Positions 10,333 through 42,045 of a DNA stretch of 64,000 nt are shown here, one piece after another. The DNA lies in contig CALVAK010000009.1 of NCBI GenBank assembly GCA_944325525.1, positions 23,574 through 87,573 of the forward strand. The letters run 5' to 3'. Every line of letters starts with the position of its first letter. The stretch's first letter is position 1. This DNA is from Candidatus Gastranaerophilales bacterium. Lineage in GTDB: Bacteria > Cyanobacteriota > Vampirovibrionia > Gastranaerophilales > Gastranaerophilaceae. A program made the translations under genes and the position numbers. Below the pieces are notes generated by a model. That model was not told where the DNA came from. It did not search any database and saw only the letters and a list, made by a program, of their open reading frames with translations.

Positions 10333-11739
10333 TTATTTTTTTTCATTAATCAAATTAGTTATAACGGCAGCTATAACAAGTGTAATTGCACCTGTAAAGA
10401 AGCCATATTCCCAATGATAATTAATGCCTGCCGGAACATCATAACTACATTGGCTAATAAACCATGCCAGCAGAGTACAAACAAGAACCTGCGGCCCCGC
10501 AATAAAGATATTAAAGATACCCATAACAGAACCTTCGGAACCTTTATGGATAAATTCAGACAACATTGCAAAAGGAAGTGCAAGAACACTTGCCCATCCG
10601 ATTCCTGATATTGCCATACAGACTAATACAAAACCAGGTGTTTTATTTAATCCCATTCCTACAAAAGTAAGTGCAAGTGTAATTAATGCAATAAAATGTA
10701 CTTTTCTATTACCAAACTTTGTCGATAATAATCCTATAGGAATTGAAACAAGAAAACAAATTAAATTTTGTATTGCAAAGCATATTGATGAAAAATTAGT
10801 AGCTTTATTCAACAAAGGCAAATATGCATTCTTTGCTTCTTCAGTCAAATTAGACAAATCAGGAATCCCATAAACTGTATGTATTGAATACTGTGTAAAG
10901 AATATATTTAAACTCATTATTCCAATCCAAGTGAACAGTTGGAGAGTGCATATTTTCCCAACCTCGGGTGATGATTGGAAGAAATCAATAACTTTTTGTA
11001 TAAAAGACGGTTCGTTAATAATTGTTTCATCAAGTTTTAAATCTGTTTTTATTTCATTCTTTTTATACTTATGTTCTCTGATAGTAATACAAGTCCACAA
11101 CATAGCAAGAGAAAAAGCGAGAGCCGCCATAACAAATTGAGCATTAATACTCATTTGATAATTAAATACATACTTTAAGAAAGGAGCAGTTCCTGCAGCA
11201 ACAACAGAGCCTAGTCCTATAGCAAAACTCAAATAAGCATTAGCCAAAGAATGTTGTTTGGCAGGTACAAGGTCAGGTACCAATGCTCTATATGGACCTT
11301 GAGCAGCATTAACACAAGCATCGATAATCCATATCATTATTGCAGCAATAATTAAACCGCCAAATAAAGGTTCTGGGATATGGAGGAATGCAGCTATTTT
11401 TTCAGAAATTAATGCCGAATTAGGAAAAGCCCATAAAGCAAGACTTGCAAATATTGCACCTGCAAGCAGATAAGGTCGTCTTTTCCCAAAGATTGTATGA
11501 GTATTATCACTTAACGTACCAATTATCGGCTGAACAACCATTCCGGTAACAGGGCCTGCCAGCCATATCAAACCAAAAATTAACGGCGAAGCACCCAACG
11601 TCTCAGTAACCGGACCTGATAATATTATTCTCATTTGCCATGCAAATTGCAAACCGAAAAAACCAAGACAAAAGTTTAATAATTGAATTGTTGTAAACGG
11701 TTTTAGTTGATTTTCTTGTGCATTTGTCTCACTGCTCAT
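10333..11739 (-). CDS. MFS transporter, GPH / sucrose-H+ symporter-like (SLC45-like)
   Basis: About 12 hydrophobic segments. The GKRRPYLLAGA motif after TM2 is typical of the glycoside-pentoside-hexuronide and sucrose transporter families. Confidence 0.7.
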   Translation of the reverse strand: MSSETNAQENQLKPFTTIQLLNFCLGFFGLQFAWQMRIILSGPVTETLGASPLIFGLIWLAGPVTGMVVQPIIGTLSDNTHTIFGKRRPYLLAGAIFASLALWAFPNSALISEKIAAFLHIPEPLFGGLIIAAIMIWIIDACVNAAQGPYRALVPDLVPAKQHSLANAYLSFAIGLGSVVAAGTAPFLKYVFNYQMSINAQFVMAALAFSLAMLWTCITIREHKYKKNEIKTDLKLDETIINEPSFIQKVIDFFQSSPEVGKICTLQLFTWIGIMSLNIFFTQYSIHTVYGIPDLSNLTEEAKNAYLPLLNKATNFSSICFAIQNLICFLVSIPIGLLSTKFGNRKVHFIALITLALTFVGMGLNKTPGFVLVCMAISGIGWASVLALPFAMLSEFIHKGSEGSVMGIFNIFIAGPQVLVCTLLAWFISQCSYDVPAGINYHWEYGFFTGAITLVIAAVITNLINEKK

Positions 11740-12742: not shown

Positions 12743-13517
12743 ATACTACTTTCTTTATTTCATCGTAAATTTCATTCAAATTATCTTGATTATAAACAAT
12801 TATTTTACCATTTCGTGTATCTTCACATCTATAAACACTTGAAACATATGTCGGAGAACCTTTTAAACCTGCATCGTCTTCAAGTATATTTATATCATAC
12901 ATATTATAGACTTTATAATCATATTTTTGAGATTTTATATATCCTGCAATTTTGGGAATTCTTGGCGGAAAAATAAAGTTATTTATGCAAATGAGAGCAG
13001 GTAACAACACCTTATAAACAGTTTGTACTCTCTCATATTGAGAACTTACTATTATATATTCATCGGTAATCTCAAGAATTTCGTTTACATTATCTAAACA
13101 TGGAACATTTAACCTTGCACCACAGCAGGGACCAGTTTGTCCTGTTTCGCCATCAGAAGCACTTTGTCCGCATATAATTAACCGCACATCAGGAAACAAT
13201 GTTTCAATTGCTTTTGTTAATATTTTAGAAGTTGCAAGTGTGTCAGAACCGGCAAATTTTGAATCACAAAGCAAAAAAGCATCATCAACCCCCATGGCAA
13301 TTGACTCTTTTAAAATATCAAGTGCTTTTTTAGGTCCCATTGTAAGTGTCACTACATTTGCATTATTAAGCTCTTTTATTCTCAAAGCAGCTTCAATAGC
13401 CTGCTTATCGACAGGATTCATAATACTTTCCATATTTGTTCTGTCAATGTTATTATTTTGAGTCCAAACAACATCGTCAGTATCGGGAACTTGTTTTATT
13501 AACACGGCAATATTCAA
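12732..13517 (-). CDS. etfB: electron transfer flavoprotein subunit beta
   Basis: NIAVLIKQVPDT N-terminus and the LIICGQSASDGETGQTG motif. The likely start is the TTG at 13517, which follows an AAGGGG RBS. The listed ORF extends to 13574. Confidence 0.8.
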   Translation of the reverse strand: MNIAVLIKQVPDTDDVVWTQNNNIDRTNMESIMNPVDKQAIEAALRIKELNNANVVTLTMGPKKALDILKESIAMGVDDAFLLCDSKFAGSDTLATSKILTKAIETLFPDVRLIICGQSASDGETGQTGPCCGARLNVPCLDNVNEILEITDEYIIVSSQYERVQTVYKVLLPALICINNFIFPPRIPKIAGYIKSQKYDYKVYNMYDINILEDDAGLKGSPTYVSSVYRCEDTRNGKIIVYNQDNLNEIYDEIKKVVYGT

Positions 13518-13693
13518 ATTATAACCCCTTATTACATAATCGTGAAAGTTGTTTATAAAAACTGAAAACAACATACCTCACACCATATATTTTGCTATAA
13601 AAACAACAATAGTGCAAACTTTTTTACTATCTTAAAATACAAAACACAAAAATAAAGCCAATAAAACTTTTAATAAACTAAACCTCAACATCC

Positions 13694-13860
13694 AAAGAAA
13701 GCAGTGGTGTAAGAACAGCTATATATGTAGTTTCGTTATTTTGTTTATTGAAACATTGTCATAGCTTTGTCTATTTGAGGCGTTAGTCGGGCTGTAAAGC
13801 TTCCGGTTGAAATTAATAAAATAGAAACGGAATATCCAGGCTGCGATTACATTACTACTT
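13694..13860 (+). ncRNA. structured RNA candidate, copy A (unclassified; rod-like fold)
   Basis: About 90% identical to 20135-20304. Substitutions between the copies preserve four helices and use G-U pairs that exist only on the + strand (see findings). Confidence 0.6.
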
Positions 13861-13917
13861 AATAAATTAATTATGTGTTTAAAATAAGTCAACCTATTAT
13901 GCATATATTATAAATAA

Positions 13918-13950
13918 GAACCCCCTCAATTAAGCGGGGGTTTCTTATTT
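13918..13950. terminator. terminator hairpin downstream of skp
   Basis: Stem AACCCCC / GGGGGTT with loop TCAATTAAGC, flanked by T-rich sequence on both strands. Confidence 0.65.
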
Positions 13951-13965
13951 GTGAATGGGATTTTG

Positions 13966-14430
13966 TTATTTTACTTTTTTAGATATAGCAGCTGTAATAT
14001 CGTCACCGCCATAGAGAACTGCACCCTTTGCAAGAACAAGATTATAACCGCCTTCTCTTGCTTCTCTGGCAATTGTAGCACTAATACTCTTATCAATTGC
14101 TTTTAATTTTGCAGCATAATTATTTCTTATAGCTTCCTGCTTTTTAGCAAACTGGGCGTCATATTGTTTAATTAATTTTTCTTTGCCTGCTTTTGTAGAT
14201 TGCTTATTCACATCTGCTCGTACAGTTTGAAGCCATTTTTGAAGTTCTTCAATTTTTTGTGCATTTTCAGTTCTCAATGCTTTTACCTGGGGAGATTTAG
14301 AAACAACATCATTGACATCAACCACTGCAAATTTAAAATTTGAAGGAATTGCCGACATAGCGAAATTGTTAATACTCAAACCTGTTATAAAAGCCAGAAG
14401 CATAGATATAATTATTAATTTGTTTTTCAC
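13966..14430 (-). CDS. skp: OmpH/Skp family periplasmic chaperone
   Basis: Signal peptide, FAVVDVNDVVSKSPQ start of the mature region, and a Lys/Gln-rich coiled body. Size 154 aa. It is adjacent to an outer-membrane autotransporter. Confidence 0.75.
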   Translation of the reverse strand: MKNKLIIISMLLAFITGLSINNFAMSAIPSNFKFAVVDVNDVVSKSPQVKALRTENAQKIEELQKWLQTVRADVNKQSTKAGKEKLIKQYDAQFAKKQEAIRNNYAAKLKAIDKSISATIAREAREGGYNLVLAKGAVLYGGDDITAAISKKVK

Positions 14431-14440
14431 TATATTTCTC

Positions 14441-17400
14441 CTATTTTATATTGTTTAAAGATATCTTAGTTGCTTCTTTTTGAGGGAACTTAGCCTGAGC
14501 TTTCTGAGTTTTTGGCTCTTCATTTTTACCTAATACCCATCTGAAGCCAGCCTGTAATCCTACACCTTTTCTACCACCTTGAGTAAAGAAAGCCTGTAAG
14601 AAGCCTGTAAATCTTTCACCCCAAGCTTTTCTTAAACCTACCCCATATTTTACAAACGGATCTACAGAAAGGTTTGGAAGTGATACGTCATTAGCCTTGA
14701 ATTGTGTTCTGTCCATTATATTCCATACAACACTGACTCCAGCATAAGGCTGCCAACCGTTTTGAAGATTACCAATAAACTTCAATCCCGGTTCTAAGTG
14801 TATAGCATGCAGTGGGTCTGAATCTATTCTCGTTCCTGCACTATTTGTAAAGTCAAATGTATTTATGAATGAATAAGACATTAACATACTAGGCTGAATT
14901 ATAAATTTACCATCAGCTAATTCATAGTTATAACCTGTCTTAGAAGCGATACCTGACATTAACATTGTGAAATCGTCAGTACCAAACATCGTATTAGCAT
15001 CACCGACACTTGCACCTACGTTTGCGGTTAAACCTGTAAAGAAGTTATCTTTATATGCCATACCAACAACACCCAGAGTACCGCCGTTCTGCCATATACC
15101 TACACCGTCATAAGCCTGATGTGAACCGTTGTAGCCGGCATATACACTTAACATACCGTCCCATCCGTGACCTAAGTCATACAGCTCTGAATCAGTTCCT
15201 ATGAATGTACCGTATGCTACATTTGATACATCCGGTCCGTTCTTTAACGGCACACTTTCGAATGTTGCGTATGGTCTGAACCATCCGGCTCTATTCTCAT
15301 ACTGAGACACTGTAGGATCATATACTAATGCACTATCATCGCCTGCTGCATATTTATTTCTTAACTTCATTGCCTGTCTTTGTTCTTTTGTCATTAGCAT
15401 ATACATATCCATGTTTCTGAAGGCATTGTCATAAGAATTTAACTGAACCAGATATCCGCCTAACTGTGCTGCAACAGGAGCTGCAAATACGTCGGGATTA
15501 TATGAGCTGTATCCGCTGCCGCCACCAACTCTTGTAAAGTTAAACATACCGTTCATCGGATCATATGCTGCACTATATTTGAATATAGGTGAATATGTTA
15601 TATCTCCGCCTGTATATTGTATTGCACCGGCAAGAGCAGTTCTTACTGCTTCATCCATTCCGCTTCCTATTGGCGATATGCTGAAGGATGTTGCCTTTGT
15701 AGGCTCCGTTATTAAAATGTCTGCTATATTTATGCTGTTACCGTTGGCATTGAAGCTGTTTGCAGTAATTGTATCAATCTGATTTTGTGCAAAGTTACCG
15801 TCAAGCATTAAATCAAGGTCTTGATTTAATGTAAGATTTCCAAGATTAGTATTTTGTATTGCACCGTTTTGCAGACTCAAAGTTCCGCCATTAGCCACAA
15901 ATGAATTTGCATTTGCTATATCTGCATTTTGAGTTAAGCTCAATATGCCTGCGTCGAGTTTAATATTGTTTCCCGTTACTGAAGTATCAATAACAGAAGA
16001 TTCTTCTATGTTTAAGTTTCCACTTCCTGTTACAGATTGAGAAACTGTTCCACCTAATACATTATAATCGCCTGTATTATTAACAGTACCTTTAATATTG
16101 TCGGCAGATGATGATAATGTACCGGCATTATCAATTACTGCTACAACATCCGCATGTGTAACCAATCCTGCACCAGAAGCAATAACAACTTTACCTTGCT
16201 CAACAGCTGCATTATTTTCAACATATCCTGATATATTGGTTGTACCTGTTCCTGTAACAGCATTTCCGATAACTCCTCCTGAAAGGTTCATTGTCCCATC
16301 ACTGTTTACAGTATTTTTAAAATCAGTAGCAAATGCATTTATAACAGCACCGGATTCTACATTTAATTTGTTTTCAACAGCATTAACGAAAGTTGTTTCA
16401 CCGTCTAAAATATTAGTTGTACCGTCAGTACCAGTAATTCCTGCTGCAATCTTGTTTGTTCCGGATAAATTCAATGTACTACTATTTGCAACGTCGACAT
16501 CGTTACCGCTGAAATTAATATCTTTAAGATTTAATTCGCCGTTATTTGTAAATGCAGTACCAAAGTTATTTACAGAGCCTGAACCTCCGTCTACTGTTAA
16601 TTTATCACCGGCAGCAACTGTTATACCGTCTTTCTTATCTGTAAGACCATTATTTATGTTGTTACCGTTCATATTAACAGATAAATTTGTTTGTGTACCT
16701 GAAGTTGTACCAATTGACTCGCCTTCAAATAAGTTTTCATCTTTTGTTAATGAATAATTATTTGCTGTTTTTTGACCGGTAATATATTCAGATAAAGAGT
16801 TTGTTGTTTTATCTATTTTGACAGTCAAATTGCCGTCTGTACCTGCAGCAAATTCATATCTGTTATCTGAAGTCAGCGTAACAGTGCTGTCATCTTTTAC
16901 CGAATAGTTAATACCTGATGTTGTACCTGATATTACAGCAAGGTTTTCTTGATAATTAGCATCTGAATATTCTTGTGTAACATTAACTTTGTCAATAGTT
17001 ATATTGGCATTGTTTGATGTTCCATCTGTAATATTAAGTTTATCAGCACTTAGATTAGACATATCCGCATCAATTTTAATAGTACCGTCACCAACGATAT
17101 GACCAACATCGTGAGAGGTAATCGTGTGCGGATCTGTACCAGAATTGTTTTGGATATCCAGTACTCCACTATTTAAATCAAGCACACCGGCTACTTTAGC
17201 ACCATCTTCAAATATGAGAGTTCCGTCTATTTTTGTAGTACCTGTACCTAAAATTTCTTTGTCTAAAGCACCTGAAAGAGCAGAATTACCCAGGTTTGTA
17301 ACTGTTCCTGTAAGCTTTTCAGCTTCTGATATTAAATTTCCTCCCTGTTGAATGTTTATTGCAGCAGATATTACATTTTCATTCGTTACCTGTCCGGCAA

Positions 17401-19813
17401 TATTAACTGCATCGCCGGTTATTGTACCTGCAGTAATAACACCTGCCTGATTATCATTTTTGATAGTTACAGCTTTATCGGCAGAACCTATAACGAAATT
17501 ATCACCTTTAACAGTAATAGTTCCGCCATTTGTAAGGTCATCTTTTAATATAACACTATTATCTCCAACTGTCTCTACTGTCATTGTACCTTTAGTATAA
17601 AGGCTGTTTCCAGCTTCAAATACAGTATCAGAATTCTCAGCTTTAATATTTAATGTAGAAGTAGATGCAACTGCATGTCCTGTACCGTAATCAGGATCAG
17701 TAGTATTTGTACCGATAAACTGAGTATCAATGATATTTACAGTACCACTTGAATTATTTATGGGAGTACCTGCAAATGATTTATTATCTTCAAATATACT
17801 GTTTTTTATTGTCGTTGTACCGCCCTGGGTATTATTTATAACACCGGTATTTCCTGTATTGTTTCCGAAATAAGAATCGGTAATCTCAACTTCACCGCCG
17901 TAATTGTATATTACAGAGCCGCCAGAGAGAATATAATCATGTACGGTAGAGTTATTTACAAAGTTAGAATCATCTATTTTAAGTGTTCCTGAATTATAAA
18001 TAACACCTCCGGTATTCATAGCACCTTGTACATTATTGCTGAATGTAGATTCATTAATATTTGTTACACCAAAATTTGAAACTACAGTACCTGTATATTG
18101 CTCTGATGTAGTAAATCCGGTAAAGCCTGTATTTTCAATATTGTCATGACCATCCGAAGCAGCCTGACCTACGTTATTTATAGTTAGTACATTAGGCTTA
18201 CCATTATTATTTTCAACTCTTATACCATTACCGGTTCCGTCGCCTTTAATGTTATATCCGCCGGCATTTATTACAAGAGAAGCACCTTCTCCGCCCATAG
18301 TACCTATTGAGCCTGTAACTGCTTCGTCTTCAGCCATATTATATACTCTGGATGAATCAGTATTTGCAACAGCCTGTTTTAAATCATAAGTGCTATTATA
18401 TGTCAGATAACCATCTTGATTATTATAAGCTAATGTATAACTTATATTTGAAGGTTTTGTAATTGCAGCATTGTCATCAAGTTCAACAACTCCCATCAAA
18501 TTTGAATCTGCTACCTGTGTTTTTACAATTTTAGAATCAGCATCAGATAAAATATTAACTGCATTTATAATTACGTTATTACTGCCTTTTACTGAAGTTG
18601 CTGTCATCATATCTGAAGATGGAGTTCCTTGTAAAGCAGCGTCTATTGCAACATTCAAATCACTATTTGTCAGATCCAAATTACCAAGATTTGTTGTCTT
18701 GATAGTGCCATCTTGCAGACTTAAAGCACCGCCGTTAGCAATTAAAGTGGTATCAGGGGCAAGGCTGCCGCTTGTCTTAGCAACATTTACTCCCCAGACA
18801 TCTTCTTCATATTCATGTGTACCGAGTTTTAGAGTACCCGCATTTAAGTTTATATCTGCATTCTGTACATAATTATTAAATTCAACAGTACCTGTGCCAC
18901 CGTTTGCGTTAATATTAATTGTATTATTGCCTGAACCGCTGATACGGTCATTAAATACAATATTATGTTCTGAACTCTTTGCATCAAGGTTTACTATATT
19001 CTCATTATATAATGCATTTGAATTTCCATTGGCAGTGTTTCCAGTAAATACAACATCCTTATTTTCAGATACTATATTTACAGTACCATCTTGATTATAT
19101 ATAGCACCGCCTCTTGTACTGGCAGTATTTGCATAGAAGGAAGTATCTTTAATTGTTAGTGTTGGTTTTTCTCTATTAGAATAACCATTTCCGTTATAGA
19201 TAGCACCACCCATACCGGTACCATCTCCTGAACCTGCCTGATTGGATATAAATACAGAATTATTTATTGTAGCTGTACCTTCAAAGTTAGTTAATATACC
19301 GCCATAACCTTCTCCTGAGGTAGAATTTGCAGAAGTATTATTTGAAATTACAGAATTATTGATATTGAGAATGCTATTATTATATAATCCGCCAACATTA
19401 TCACCATTACTATTAGGACCAATTAATTTTCCGCTTACAACGTTAAAACCTGTAATACCGGAATTAAGAGCCGGATTATCTATATCACCGATGTTATTTA
19501 CATTTAATGTTACATAATCTTCAATTGAGATAATTGCATCTTGAGTACCTATAAAATTAAATTTTTGTCCGTCTAAAGTTGCAGTAAATCCTGACTGAAC
19601 AGGATAATAAAACCCATGAACCTTGTTCGTGGTGATATCACTAATATCCTGCGTAAATGTAAATGAATTATTAGCAGGTATACCACCTGTAATATCACTA
19701 AATGAATCAATATCCACCGCACTAACCGGCTGTACACTGATAAGCATTGACAACGCCACCGCAGCCAACAAATAATTCTTTTTTTCCATCTTTATGCCCT
19801 TCTTTTTCATCAT
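14441..19813 (-). CDS. polymorphic outer membrane protein (Pmp)-repeat autotransporter
   Basis: Signal peptide LLAAVALSMLISVQPVSA. Multiple GGAIYN / GGVIYN and FxxN motifs (FISNQA, FYANTA, FTGNTA, FVNNS, FGNNTG). The C-terminal ~280 aa is rich in alternating aromatic and Gly residues and ends with GLQAGFRW, typical of an autotransporter barrel. Confidence 0.8.
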   Translation of the reverse strand: MMKKKGIKMEKKNYLLAAVALSMLISVQPVSAVDIDSFSDITGGIPANNSFTFTQDISDITTNKVHGFYYPVQSGFTATLDGQKFNFIGTQDAIISIEDYVTLNVNNIGDIDNPALNSGITGFNVVSGKLIGPNSNGDNVGGLYNNSILNINNSVISNNTSANSTSGEGYGGILTNFEGTATINNSVFISNQAGSGDGTGMGGAIYNGNGYSNREKPTLTIKDTSFYANTASTRGGAIYNQDGTVNIVSENKDVVFTGNTANGNSNALYNENIVNLDAKSSEHNIVFNDRISGSGNNTININANGGTGTVEFNNYVQNADINLNAGTLKLGTHEYEEDVWGVNVAKTSGSLAPDTTLIANGGALSLQDGTIKTTNLGNLDLTNSDLNVAIDAALQGTPSSDMMTATSVKGSNNVIINAVNILSDADSKIVKTQVADSNLMGVVELDDNAAITKPSNISYTLAYNNQDGYLTYNSTYDLKQAVANTDSSRVYNMAEDEAVTGSIGTMGGEGASLVINAGGYNIKGDGTGNGIRVENNNGKPNVLTINNVGQAASDGHDNIENTGFTGFTTSEQYTGTVVSNFGVTNINESTFSNNVQGAMNTGGVIYNSGTLKIDDSNFVNNSTVHDYILSGGSVIYNYGGEVEITDSYFGNNTGNTGVINNTQGGTTTIKNSIFEDNKSFAGTPINNSSGTVNIIDTQFIGTNTTDPDYGTGHAVASTSTLNIKAENSDTVFEAGNSLYTKGTMTVETVGDNSVILKDDLTNGGTITVKGDNFVIGSADKAVTIKNDNQAGVITAGTITGDAVNIAGQVTNENVISAAINIQQGGNLISEAEKLTGTVTNLGNSALSGALDKEILGTGTTKIDGTLIFEDGAKVAGVLDLNSGVLDIQNNSGTDPHTITSHDVGHIVGDGTIKIDADMSNLSADKLNITDGTSNNANITIDKVNVTQEYSDANYQENLAVISGTTSGINYSVKDDSTVTLTSDNRYEFAAGTDGNLTVKIDKTTNSLSEYITGQKTANNYSLTKDENLFEGESIGTTSGTQTNLSVNMNGNNINNGLTDKKDGITVAAGDKLTVDGGSGSVNNFGTAFTNNGELNLKDINFSGNDVDVANSSTLNLSGTNKIAAGITGTDGTTNILDGETTFVNAVENKLNVESGAVINAFATDFKNTVNSDGTMNLSGGVIGNAVTGTGTTNISGYVENNAAVEQGKVVIASGAGLVTHADVVAVIDNAGTLSSSADNIKGTVNNTGDYNVLGGTVSQSVTGSGNLNIEESSVIDTSVTGNNIKLDAGILSLTQNADIANANSFVANGGTLSLQNGAIQNTNLGNLTLNQDLDLMLDGNFAQNQIDTITANSFNANGNSINIADILITEPTKATSFSISPIGSGMDEAVRTALAGAIQYTGGDITYSPIFKYSAAYDPMNGMFNFTRVGGGSGYSSYNPDVFAAPVAAQLGGYLVQLNSYDNAFRNMDMYMLMTKEQRQAMKLRNKYAAGDDSALVYDPTVSQYENRAGWFRPYATFESVPLKNGPDVSNVAYGTFIGTDSELYDLGHGWDGMLSVYAGYNGSHQAYDGVGIWQNGGTLGVVGMAYKDNFFTGLTANVGASVGDANTMFGTDDFTMLMSGIASKTGYNYELADGKFIIQPSMLMSYSFINTFDFTNSAGTRIDSDPLHAIHLEPGLKFIGNLQNGWQPYAGVSVVWNIMDRTQFKANDVSLPNLSVDPFVKYGVGLRKAWGERFTGFLQAFFTQGGRKGVGLQAGFRWVLGKNEEPKTQKAQAKFPQKEATKISLNNIK

Positions 19814-20098
19814 TTTATCTATAATGATGTATAAGCTAACCTCTACTTTAGAGAGTTAATATTAAACGGTATATTTTTTTATTCAAAAAAGAGGTTTCAA
19901 ATGTTGCAAAAAATTTAATAGTTGTGTTATTATTGACAGGTAAGTAGATATGCATCATTATAGATAAATCATTTATTAAGCATTGTTAAATTGTAAATAT
20001 AAAAAATTATAAAAAATATATACAAAAGTTATTGTTATACTATTACACAAGCATCGTAACAAAATTTGAAGAAATTATATACTAACTGACCAAAATTT

Positions 20099-20128
20099 TT
20101 GCTAGTTCAAAAGCCAACCTGCTATATA
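20099..20128 (+). promoter_or_regulatory. sigma70-like promoter for RNA copy B
   Basis: TTGCTA (20099-20104), an 18-nt spacer, TATATA (20123-20128). The conserved repeat starts 7 nt downstream. Confidence 0.5.
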
Positions 20129-20134
20129 TGATTT

Positions 20135-20304
20135 AAAGAAAGCAGTGGTGTAAGAGCAGCTATATATGGAGTTTCGTTATTTTGTTTATTGAAACATTGT
20201 CAAAGTTTTGTCTGTTTGAGGCGTTAGCCGGGCTGCAAAACTTCGGGTTGAAATTAACGAAATAGAAACGTAATATCCAGGCTGTGATTATATCACTGTT
20301 TCTT
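20135..20304 (+). ncRNA. structured RNA candidate, copy B
   Basis: Same as copy A. The closing stem AAGAAA(G)CAGTGGTGT / ATATCACTGTTTCTT (15 bp plus a bulge) is followed by AAATTTTTTCTT. Confidence 0.6.
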
Positions 20305-20320
20305 AAATTTTTTCTTATAA

Positions 20321-25590: not shown

Positions 25591-25741
25591 TATCCTAATC
25601 ATATCAGATAAATTGAGGAATATAAATATTAATTTTAAAAGTCTTTTAATACAATTGTTACGAATATTAAATAATAAATCGTGAATTATTAAAGTCAAAG
25701 CTAAAATATTCCGAGAAAAAACATGAATAAGGTTGGAAAAA

Positions 25742-41933: not shown

Positions 41934-42045
41934 TTTGTTTTTCTCAAAATCCGAACAATGCAAATATATTATCACTATAAAAATTATGAATCAATACTTT
42001 ATATCTTTTTGTATTGATTCATAACTTTTTTAATATTATTACAGC

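Follow-up and report, generated by a model that had tools for sequence, protein, structure and literature searches.

A lineage-specific foldback repeat brackets a phase-variable surface-protein insertion in a Gastranaerophilales bacterium

We have analysed a 64,000-nucleotide stretch of the genome of a Candidatus Gastranaerophilales bacterium of about 30% GC (GenBank assembly GCA_944325525.1, contig CALVAK010000009.1, positions 23,574 to 87,573 of the forward strand), called here 'the window', which contains two copies of an intergenic repeat of about 175 bp. The names carried by homologues of its proteins likewise indicate a gut bacterium of the Gastranaerophilales (Melainabacteria). The repeat is a lineage-specific foldback sequence, and its copies bracket an insertion that carries a phase-variable surface-protein operon. 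In an original prediction, made from the letters of the window, the two copies were proposed to specify a structured RNA of about 165 nt, read from the + strand and recalling 6S RNA in its architecture. The sequence observation behind this proposal is sound; the evidence for a novel structured small RNA (sRNA) is not. Our own reading, the likeliest of those we weighed but one that we put forward tentatively and would call possible rather than probable, is that this low-copy repeat acts as a terminator or insulator, stopping transcription in both directions where the inserted block begins and ends.

The repeat and its hairpin

Copy A (13694-13868) and copy B (20135-20309) form an ungapped alignment of 175 nt in which 19 positions differ (BLAST E = 1e-62), a match that is beyond chance. 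They had been placed at 13694-13857 and 20135-20299 with about 16 mismatches. These coordinates are right, and we also count 16 differences up to position 13857, but the homology is slightly longer, reaching 13868 and 20309; it ends abruptly at both sides. As had been claimed, both copies are intergenic. Copy A lies 98 nt beyond the skp stop codon, and what remains of an ancestral nadC-etfB spacer (see below) is about 65 nt away from it; copy B ends 11 nt ahead of the nadC stop codon. Neither blastn (word size 7) nor a covariance model built from the haplotypes (R1) identifies a third copy within the window.

A coding function was considered and rejected. The 61-aa open reading frame (ORF) on the - strand of copy A had already been described as not conserved, and it indeed has no counterpart in copy B; a 27-aa ORF of copy B is likewise not common to both copies, and no ORF inside the element is called by gene callers in any contig.

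The four helices proposed originally (P1 to P4) are recovered at their positions by RNAalifold, as part of a stem of 63 irregular, AU-rich pairs. Copy A, the decayed copy, folds at -41 kcal/mol on the + strand and at -28.4 kcal/mol on the - strand. The corresponding values for copy B are -57.2 and -28.4 kcal/mol (z = -6.2 on the + strand; none of 200 shuffled sequences is equally stable). Copy B is a near-perfect rod, with + strand folds of -57 to -59.5 kcal/mol and 66 pairs in its more complete form. A long irregular hairpin is truly encoded and is thermodynamically much better on the + strand. This part of the claim that the RNA is read from the + strand stands. The accompanying argument, that the strand is betrayed by G.U pairs that would be C.A mismatches on the - strand, comes down to a modest bias: where the two arms do not match, the ratio of G.U to A.C on the + strand is 10:2 for copy B (p = 0.019) and 8:4 for copy A. 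Mutation bias is a poor candidate for the source of this excess, since the local GC skew would be expected to give the opposite bias.

Variation between copies and among strains

Differences between the two copies are unevenly spread, with 2 in the 5' 68 nt and 17 in the 3' 107 nt (Fisher p = 0.006). Six assemblies show 5 segregating sites in the 175 nt of copy B and 2 in the 166 nt of the adjoining spacer. Polymorphism is not below that of the flanks, and nothing points to purifying selection acting on the sequence of copy B. Some haplotypes are mosaic: copy B carries A-like states in strains L190 and L187, and copy A carries B-like states in L008. Because these variants match the states of the other copy, the two copies appear to exchange sequence. 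Many short-read contigs terminate inside the element, at a 33-mer common to both copies, as would be expected of a repeat.

The proposal of a structured RNA drew on the observation that all differences falling in helices keep pairing, the remainder falling in loops. The pair changes listed in its support are correct (C13765/G13799 to U/A, the changes at 13795, 13817-13818, 13850 and 13853, and the apical GUC to GCC). The general statement does not hold: positions 13715, 13728, 13762, 13773 and 13804, which fall in the loops as originally drawn, are paired in copy B and mismatched in copy A, and copy A breaks 9 of the 66 pairs of the copy B structure. We compared this figure with that obtained by introducing 19 random substitutions into copy B at the observed transition/transversion ratio, and ran the same test in both directions. 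Randomly mutated copies of B break 8.2 pairs on average, so that the 9 broken in copy A are typical (P = 0.76), as is its energy of -41.7 kcal/mol (mean of the mutated copies -45.0, sd 6.0). In the reverse direction, copy B keeps almost all of the copy A pairs (P = 0.009), which is expected if copy A is a decayed B-like rod; copy B is also far more stable than any mutated copy A (0 of 1000).

Covariation had been proposed as a check on the fold. None is significant among the four full-length haplotypes, a number that gives the test low power: the covariation score is 0.071, compared with 0.078 for shuffles (of 500 shuffles, 434 equal or exceed the real score), and one two-sided pair change is seen where 0.5 is expected. 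This outcome counts against the RNA as it was originally framed. Strain variants point the same way. In L190, copy B carries a U72>C change with no partner change at position 106, which breaks the sole compensatory pair of the original prediction, and a G80>A change that gives A.C on the + strand; in L187, G13>A in copy B also gives A.C on the + strand. These variants argue against a strict + strand constraint on copy B.

The argument from fold-preserving substitutions thus vanishes once the structure is no longer picked from the pairs that survive in both copies. When helices are defined from such pairs, the substitutions between the copies necessarily seem to preserve pairing. This is a general caution for palindromic two-copy repeats, in which a definition of this kind guarantees apparent conservation of pairing.

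An insertion between nadC and etfB

The genes around the element are all on the - strand. Along this strand the order is nadB, nadC, copy B, a gene for a 1782-aa protein, skp, copy A, etfB, etfA and a gene for an MFS transporter. In three related species (L017, L020 and L023, whose etfB is 62-67% identical) the order is nadB-nadC-etfB-etfA-MFS, with 55 nt between nadC and etfB, and a motif of this ancestral spacer is still recognisable beside etfB in the window. The approximately 6.7 kb found here (about 13630 to 20320 by comparison with the three species) are therefore an insertion, with copy B 11 nt and copy A about 65 nt inside its ends. It is difficult to reconcile a conserved sRNA gene with these results: the copies are the ends of an inserted block, an outcome that the original prediction itself had listed as telling against it, the homology between them starts sharply with no shared promoter upstream, and no homologue was found outside the species.

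The insertion contains two genes. The larger (14441..19813, - strand; 1782 aa from the ATG at 19789) is repeat-rich and resembles genes for PMP proteins. Its product has no Pfam match of its own, and homologues of this protein carry Chlamydia-PMP, beta-helix and autotransporter-type repeats. Variation among strains is also higher in this gene than in its neighbours (about 2.1 compared with 0-1.4 segregating sites per 100 nt). The second cargo gene, skp (13966..14430, - strand), encodes a periplasmic chaperone of the OmpH/Skp family. Between skp and copy A there is a canonical GC-rich hairpin with T-runs on both strands (13912..13950), which has the appearance of an intrinsic terminator acting in both directions.

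No target-site duplication is visible around copy A, copy B or the pair, and an old duplication could have decayed. There is no transposase or recombinase gene within the 64-kb window, and neither an empty site nor a solo copy nor an alternative cargo was found among the assemblies of this species examined. At two related loci (L026 and L027), PMP-OmpH modules adjoin Tn7-like TnsB/TniB genes and are themselves followed by OmpH and DUF3089 genes. This arrangement, together with the 180-aa tyrosine recombinase found at related loci (see below), indicates that such modules do move.

An invertible promoter beside copy B

The spacer between nadC and the PMP-like gene includes an invertible segment, or inverton (19814..19968). 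Its inverted repeats (19814-19833 and 19949-19968) are 20 nt long and 95% complementary, and they flank a segment that is present in both orientations in natural populations. The inversion was seen on aligning this spacer from six assemblies, where the block first seemed hypervariable. The inner 115 nt (19834-19948) have the window orientation in L001, L002, L003/L183 and L187 and are the exact reverse complement, with 0 mismatches, in L188 and L189. One asymmetric base in the inverted repeats moves with the inverted segment.

The best promoter-like site in the region, TTGACA-17-CATTAT (19933..19961, + strand), matches the consensus at 10 of 12 positions. The invertible segment contains its -35 box and the repeat arm its -10 box, so that the promoter would be rebuilt in either orientation. 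As oriented in the window it faces along the + strand, toward copy B and away from the PMP-like gene (OFF). Assemblies L188 and L189 have this -35 box turned toward the PMP-like gene (ON), with a short leader, a GAAGGG ribosome-binding site and the ATG at 19789. In the window orientation a + strand transcript is predicted to start near 19968 and to run through 167 nt of AU-rich non-coding sequence into copy B, which begins about 167 nt downstream of the predicted start site and is the dominant structure in the fold of the predicted 368-nt transcript. The idea of a + strand RNA therefore finds a candidate promoter aimed at copy B; for copy A there is no convincing + strand promoter.

Gut bacteria are well known to carry invertons (Jiang et al. 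2019, PMC6543533, as cited in PMC10994844). The switch described here resembles them in that inverted repeats flank a promoter-bearing segment, both orientations occur naturally and a surface-protein operon lies downstream. It differs in that this species has no adjacent recombinase gene (no site-specific recombinase is found beside the switch in the window) and in that the -10 box is in the repeat arm. At related loci, a gene for a 180-aa tyrosine recombinase precedes the PMP-like genes (L024, 9638-9845; L027, 3152-3490; L026, 4357-5503).

These related loci provide a separate observation. Between the recombinase and PMP-like genes of L024 and L027 there are inverted repeats TTACAAC...GTTGTAA, spaced by 137-140 nt, and these are probable invertons; L026 shares the motif in the alignment, with no such repeat pair reported there.

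A full-text literature search returned no paper linking invertible promoters with Melainabacteria except one survey of epigenetic invertons. The present locus is a case of a promoter that flips in nature, in a gut bacterium of Gastranaerophilales-like (Melainabacteria) type; this promoter would control a large surface-protein operon inserted between two housekeeping operons.

A possible two-way terminator or insulator

The position of the two copies suggests how the element might act. In the window orientation the promoter would fire along the + strand into copy B, whose rod and U-rich tail would end the transcript 11 nt before it entered nadC in the antisense direction. From the opposite side, copy B would close the nadB-nadC transcript. 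Copy A and the adjoining canonical terminator (13912-13950) would stop read-through from the surface-protein operon into etfBA; as a decaying duplicate, copy A may simply back up termination before etfBA. Together, the hairpins would insulate the neighbouring housekeeping genes from the switchable promoter. If the rods do insulate, the locus is a compact example of how neighbours can be shielded from a strong two-way switchable promoter.

A number of features are consistent with this model. On the + strand, the basal stem of copy B (...CACUG) is followed directly by the terminator-like, U-rich tail UUUCUUAAAUUUUUUCUU (20299..20316), after which comes the nadC stop codon; copy A is without a comparable + strand tail. 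On the - strand of both copies, ...CACCACUG is followed by CUUUCUUU, which in copy B (20135..20142) forms the U-rich tail after the hairpin for transcripts leaving nadC and in copy A occupies 13694-13701. Both elements expected of an intrinsic bidirectional terminator are thus found, a hairpin followed by a U-tract and an A-tract upstream that would serve the opposite direction, and copies A and B both lie at the 3' ends of transcription units. The pattern of variation can also be accommodated. A near-perfect copy B and a copy A that resembles a randomly decayed B fit selection on the hairpin of B and little selection on that of A, and the polymorphism of copy B and its tolerance of pair-breaking changes fit a hairpin that is needed only in bulk. 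Termination would therefore explain why the + fold is favoured in copy B, why copy B was preserved while copy A decayed and why polymorphism is tolerated.

Other results weigh against this interpretation. Both the promoter and the termination are predicted at the level of consensus. A typical intrinsic terminator has 5-20 GC-rich pairs; a stem of 63 irregular, AU-rich pairs is far from this, no short GC-rich stem is present and a consensus terminator scan did not report the element. Copy A has a poor U-tract on the + strand and loses its - strand hairpin when folded in context; given these features and the canonical terminator alongside, copy A may have no function. No comparable hairpin was found at the related PMP-like loci with invertons (L024, L026 and L027). 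In addition, termination leaves unexplained why the same 175-bp sequence is found at both ends of the insertion. This would need an event at the DNA level, such as the formation of a composite element, Campbell-type recombination or arrival in one piece.

Among known systems, the element would work most like a bidirectional terminator or insulator, and it looks most like the imperfect palindromes of the ERIC (enterobacterial repetitive intergenic consensus) or MITE (miniature inverted-repeat transposable element) type. Copy B shares with bidirectional terminators the succession of A-tract, hairpin and U-tract, placed where transcription of nadC on the - strand and from the flipped promoter on the + strand would meet; the difference lies in the length, composition and irregularity of the stem and in the fact that termination is predicted here. 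As at the cwpV-type switch of Clostridioides difficile, the hairpin of copy B is within a couple of hundred bases of an invertible switch, but here it is outside the invertible segment and is not formed by it.

Searches for homologues and RNA families

No homologue of the element was found outside this species in any collection searched. Exact-pattern scans returned 4 chance matches, limited to a 19-nt pattern, in 185,579 representative genomes and 34 chance matches of 20-30 nt in the JGI metagenomes; three patterns found no homologue in IMG/VR, and blastn gave no match in phage and plasmid collections. The pattern scans of these collections need exact 18-19-mers, so that diverged relatives would escape them. 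The covariance model R1, applied to the window, to about 10 kb past its right end and to about 200 kb of related loci, detects only copies A and B. The closest etfB homologues in the protein database are 68% identical, which means that there is no close sister species for a covariation analysis.

Rfam was scanned with the whole window at gathering thresholds, without a 6S match, and more permissively with stretches of 391 nt and 517 nt containing each copy with its flanks. No family, 6S included, matches either copy even at E <= 10, which leaves the suggested 6S-like class without a counterpart in Rfam. Overall, the scans gave a tRNA-Pro and otherwise weak chance matches, which centre on the skp terminator and include CRISPR-DR5 at 16-17 bits.

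Several other classes were considered and set aside. The stretch GTTTC...ATTGAAAC resembles a CRISPR repeat, and the window contains neither an array nor a cas gene. A template and variable repeat pair of a diversity-generating retroelement does not fit: the substitutions are not specific to adenine, neither copy lies in a gene and a reverse transcriptase is lacking. By its dimensions and rod shape the element also suggested a retron, an IS110 bridge RNA, an omega RNA or a rolling-circle single-strand origin, for none of which is there a partner gene in the window.

Alternative explanations

The element might instead be the ends of a mobile or composite element, a MITE-like foldback with no present function, whose two copies either mobilised the surface-protein block or arrived together with it and whose hairpin derives from long terminal inverted repeats that are decaying neutrally. 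We consider this rather unlikely, although much of the evidence fits it. The copies are at both extremes of the insertion, the pair has outer ends that form an inverted repeat (AAAGAAAGCAGTG... and ...CACTGTTTCTT), copy A resembles a randomly mutated B and strain variants break pairs. The PMP-OmpH modules of relatives adjoin Tn7-like transposition genes, and many assemblies break within the element, as they do in repeats. The terminal inverted repeats expected of a MITE (AAAGAAAGCAGTGGTG... and ...CACTGTTTCTT) are present as well, but trivially so, because the whole element is a palindrome. On the other side, there is no visible target-site duplication at either copy or at the pair, no transposase or recombinase in the 64 kb, and there are only two copies in about 74 kb (the window and L192, which extends past its right end), none in about 200 kb of relatives and no match in the phage, plasmid, viral, metagenome and representative-genome collections. 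The near-perfect rod of copy B and its 10:2 excess of G.U would also be unexpected under purely neutral decay.

The same balance appears when the element is set beside repeat families of known type. It has in common with ERIC repeats (also termed IRU) and with MITE-like foldbacks a length of more than 100 bp, an imperfectly palindromic sequence forming a long irregular hairpin, an intergenic location in regions that are likely to be transcribed and sequence that is exchanged or variable between copies. ERIC/IRU and MITE-like families comprise dispersed copies, numbering in the tens to hundreds, and occur in more than one species. The present element is known from two copies alone, one at each end of a single insertion, and no relative was found outside the species. 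MITE pairs that flank a cargo (for example, integron mobilisation units or the MITEs around class 1 integrons) offer a closer parallel, in that a pair of inverted-repeat sequences brackets a block absent in relatives. Such pairs are near-identical, are bordered by short target-site duplications and have a known cognate transposase. Copies A and B, by comparison, diverge by 11%, and we found neither a duplication nor a transposase.

A stand-alone, trans-acting + strand sRNA with two paralogues, each a rod of about 165 nt and possibly 6S-like, seems to us improbable. In its favour are the much more stable + strand fold (z = -6.2 in copy B), the excess of G.U over A.C in the same copy, the one true compensatory pair between the copies and the + strand promoter-like site aimed at copy B in the window. 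These must be weighed against the lack of an Rfam match, covariation no higher than in shuffles, a copy A that behaves as a randomly mutated B, and strain variants that introduce A.C mismatches into the + strand fold and disrupt the compensatory pair. Moreover, the copies become homologous abruptly and have no promoter in common, no convincing + strand promoter is seen for copy A, copy B is no less polymorphic than its flanks, and the element is missing from the syntenic nadC-etfB site of three related species and from every collection searched. The resemblance to 6S RNA (Rfam RF00013 and related families) is confined to the rod-like fold with internal loops and a roughly similar length. Unlike 6S RNA, the element has no covariance-model match, no conservation in related species and no conserved promoter, and it occurs as two near-identical copies at the ends of an insertion.

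In a variant of the RNA hypothesis, which we find about equally improbable, the switch has two outputs. One orientation of the promoter would yield the PMP-like protein and Skp, and the other a non-coding + strand RNA of about 340 nt, with the 165-nt rod of copy B as its body and a function in trans. It is just as doubtful that such a rod would, for example, sequester a protein or act on the copy A region. If the two-output switch were correct, phase variation would toggle between a surface protein and a structured regulatory RNA.

Finally, it is very improbable that the two copies are structured recombination sites similar to attC or the Vibrio cholerae repeats, at which a site-specific recombinase would excise the block as a circle and re-insert it at another copy: although two direct, imperfectly palindromic copies about 90% identical flank a block of co-oriented genes, fold asymmetrically with respect to strand and show evidence of sequence exchange, and a small (180-aa) tyrosine recombinase occurs alongside related PMP-like modules, the attC core boxes RYYYAAC/GTTRRRY (AAC...GTT) are absent (the arm AAGAAAC/GTTTCTT has purine and pyrimidine positions inverted and the arm AAGAAAGC/GCTTTCTT lacks AAC/GTT), the window has no integron integrase, the sites number only two and enclose a single block, attC sites are shorter than the element (57-141 compared with 175 bp), the cargo has its own promoter, and the assemblies of the species examined contain no empty site, solo copy or alternative cargo.

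Other features of the window and its flank

Several observations do not bear directly on the repeat. The start of the etfB ORF at 13574 is probably too far upstream: the alignment with relatives places the start at a TTG near 13516 (13516-13600), and a degenerate duplicate of the etfB ribosome-binding site and start region lies just upstream of this TTG.

A look-up of the protein at the left end of the window, made with a view to extending the sequence leftward, gave no match. Near this end a 33-nt palindromic repeat of the REP (repetitive extragenic palindromic) type, AAAATTGTTGGGTTAAAACCCAACCTACAGGCT, is found at 381-413, 2072-2104 and 2185-2217 and, inverted, at 1897-1928 and 3943-3974. These five copies surround three paralogous Kelch-motif genes (269-5687).

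A second very large ORF (25733-30883) encodes 1716 aa with no Pfam match. It lies between genes for a GT4 glycosyltransferase and an RNase III-domain protein that are adjacent in related species and looks like a second lineage-specific insertion; no flanking repeats were found around this large-gene insertion (25.7-30.9 kb).

Past the right end of the window, by about 0.2-0.5 kb, L192 (about 11430-11650) contains a direct repeat of about 57 nt that includes a tRNA 3' end and a terminator-like hairpin. Several short contigs end at this repeat, which looks like the trace left by an element that integrated at a tRNA gene. Within the window, a further hairpin (41967-42041), with 31-nt arms that are 81% complementary and a 13-nt loop, lies between pyrF and the next gene.

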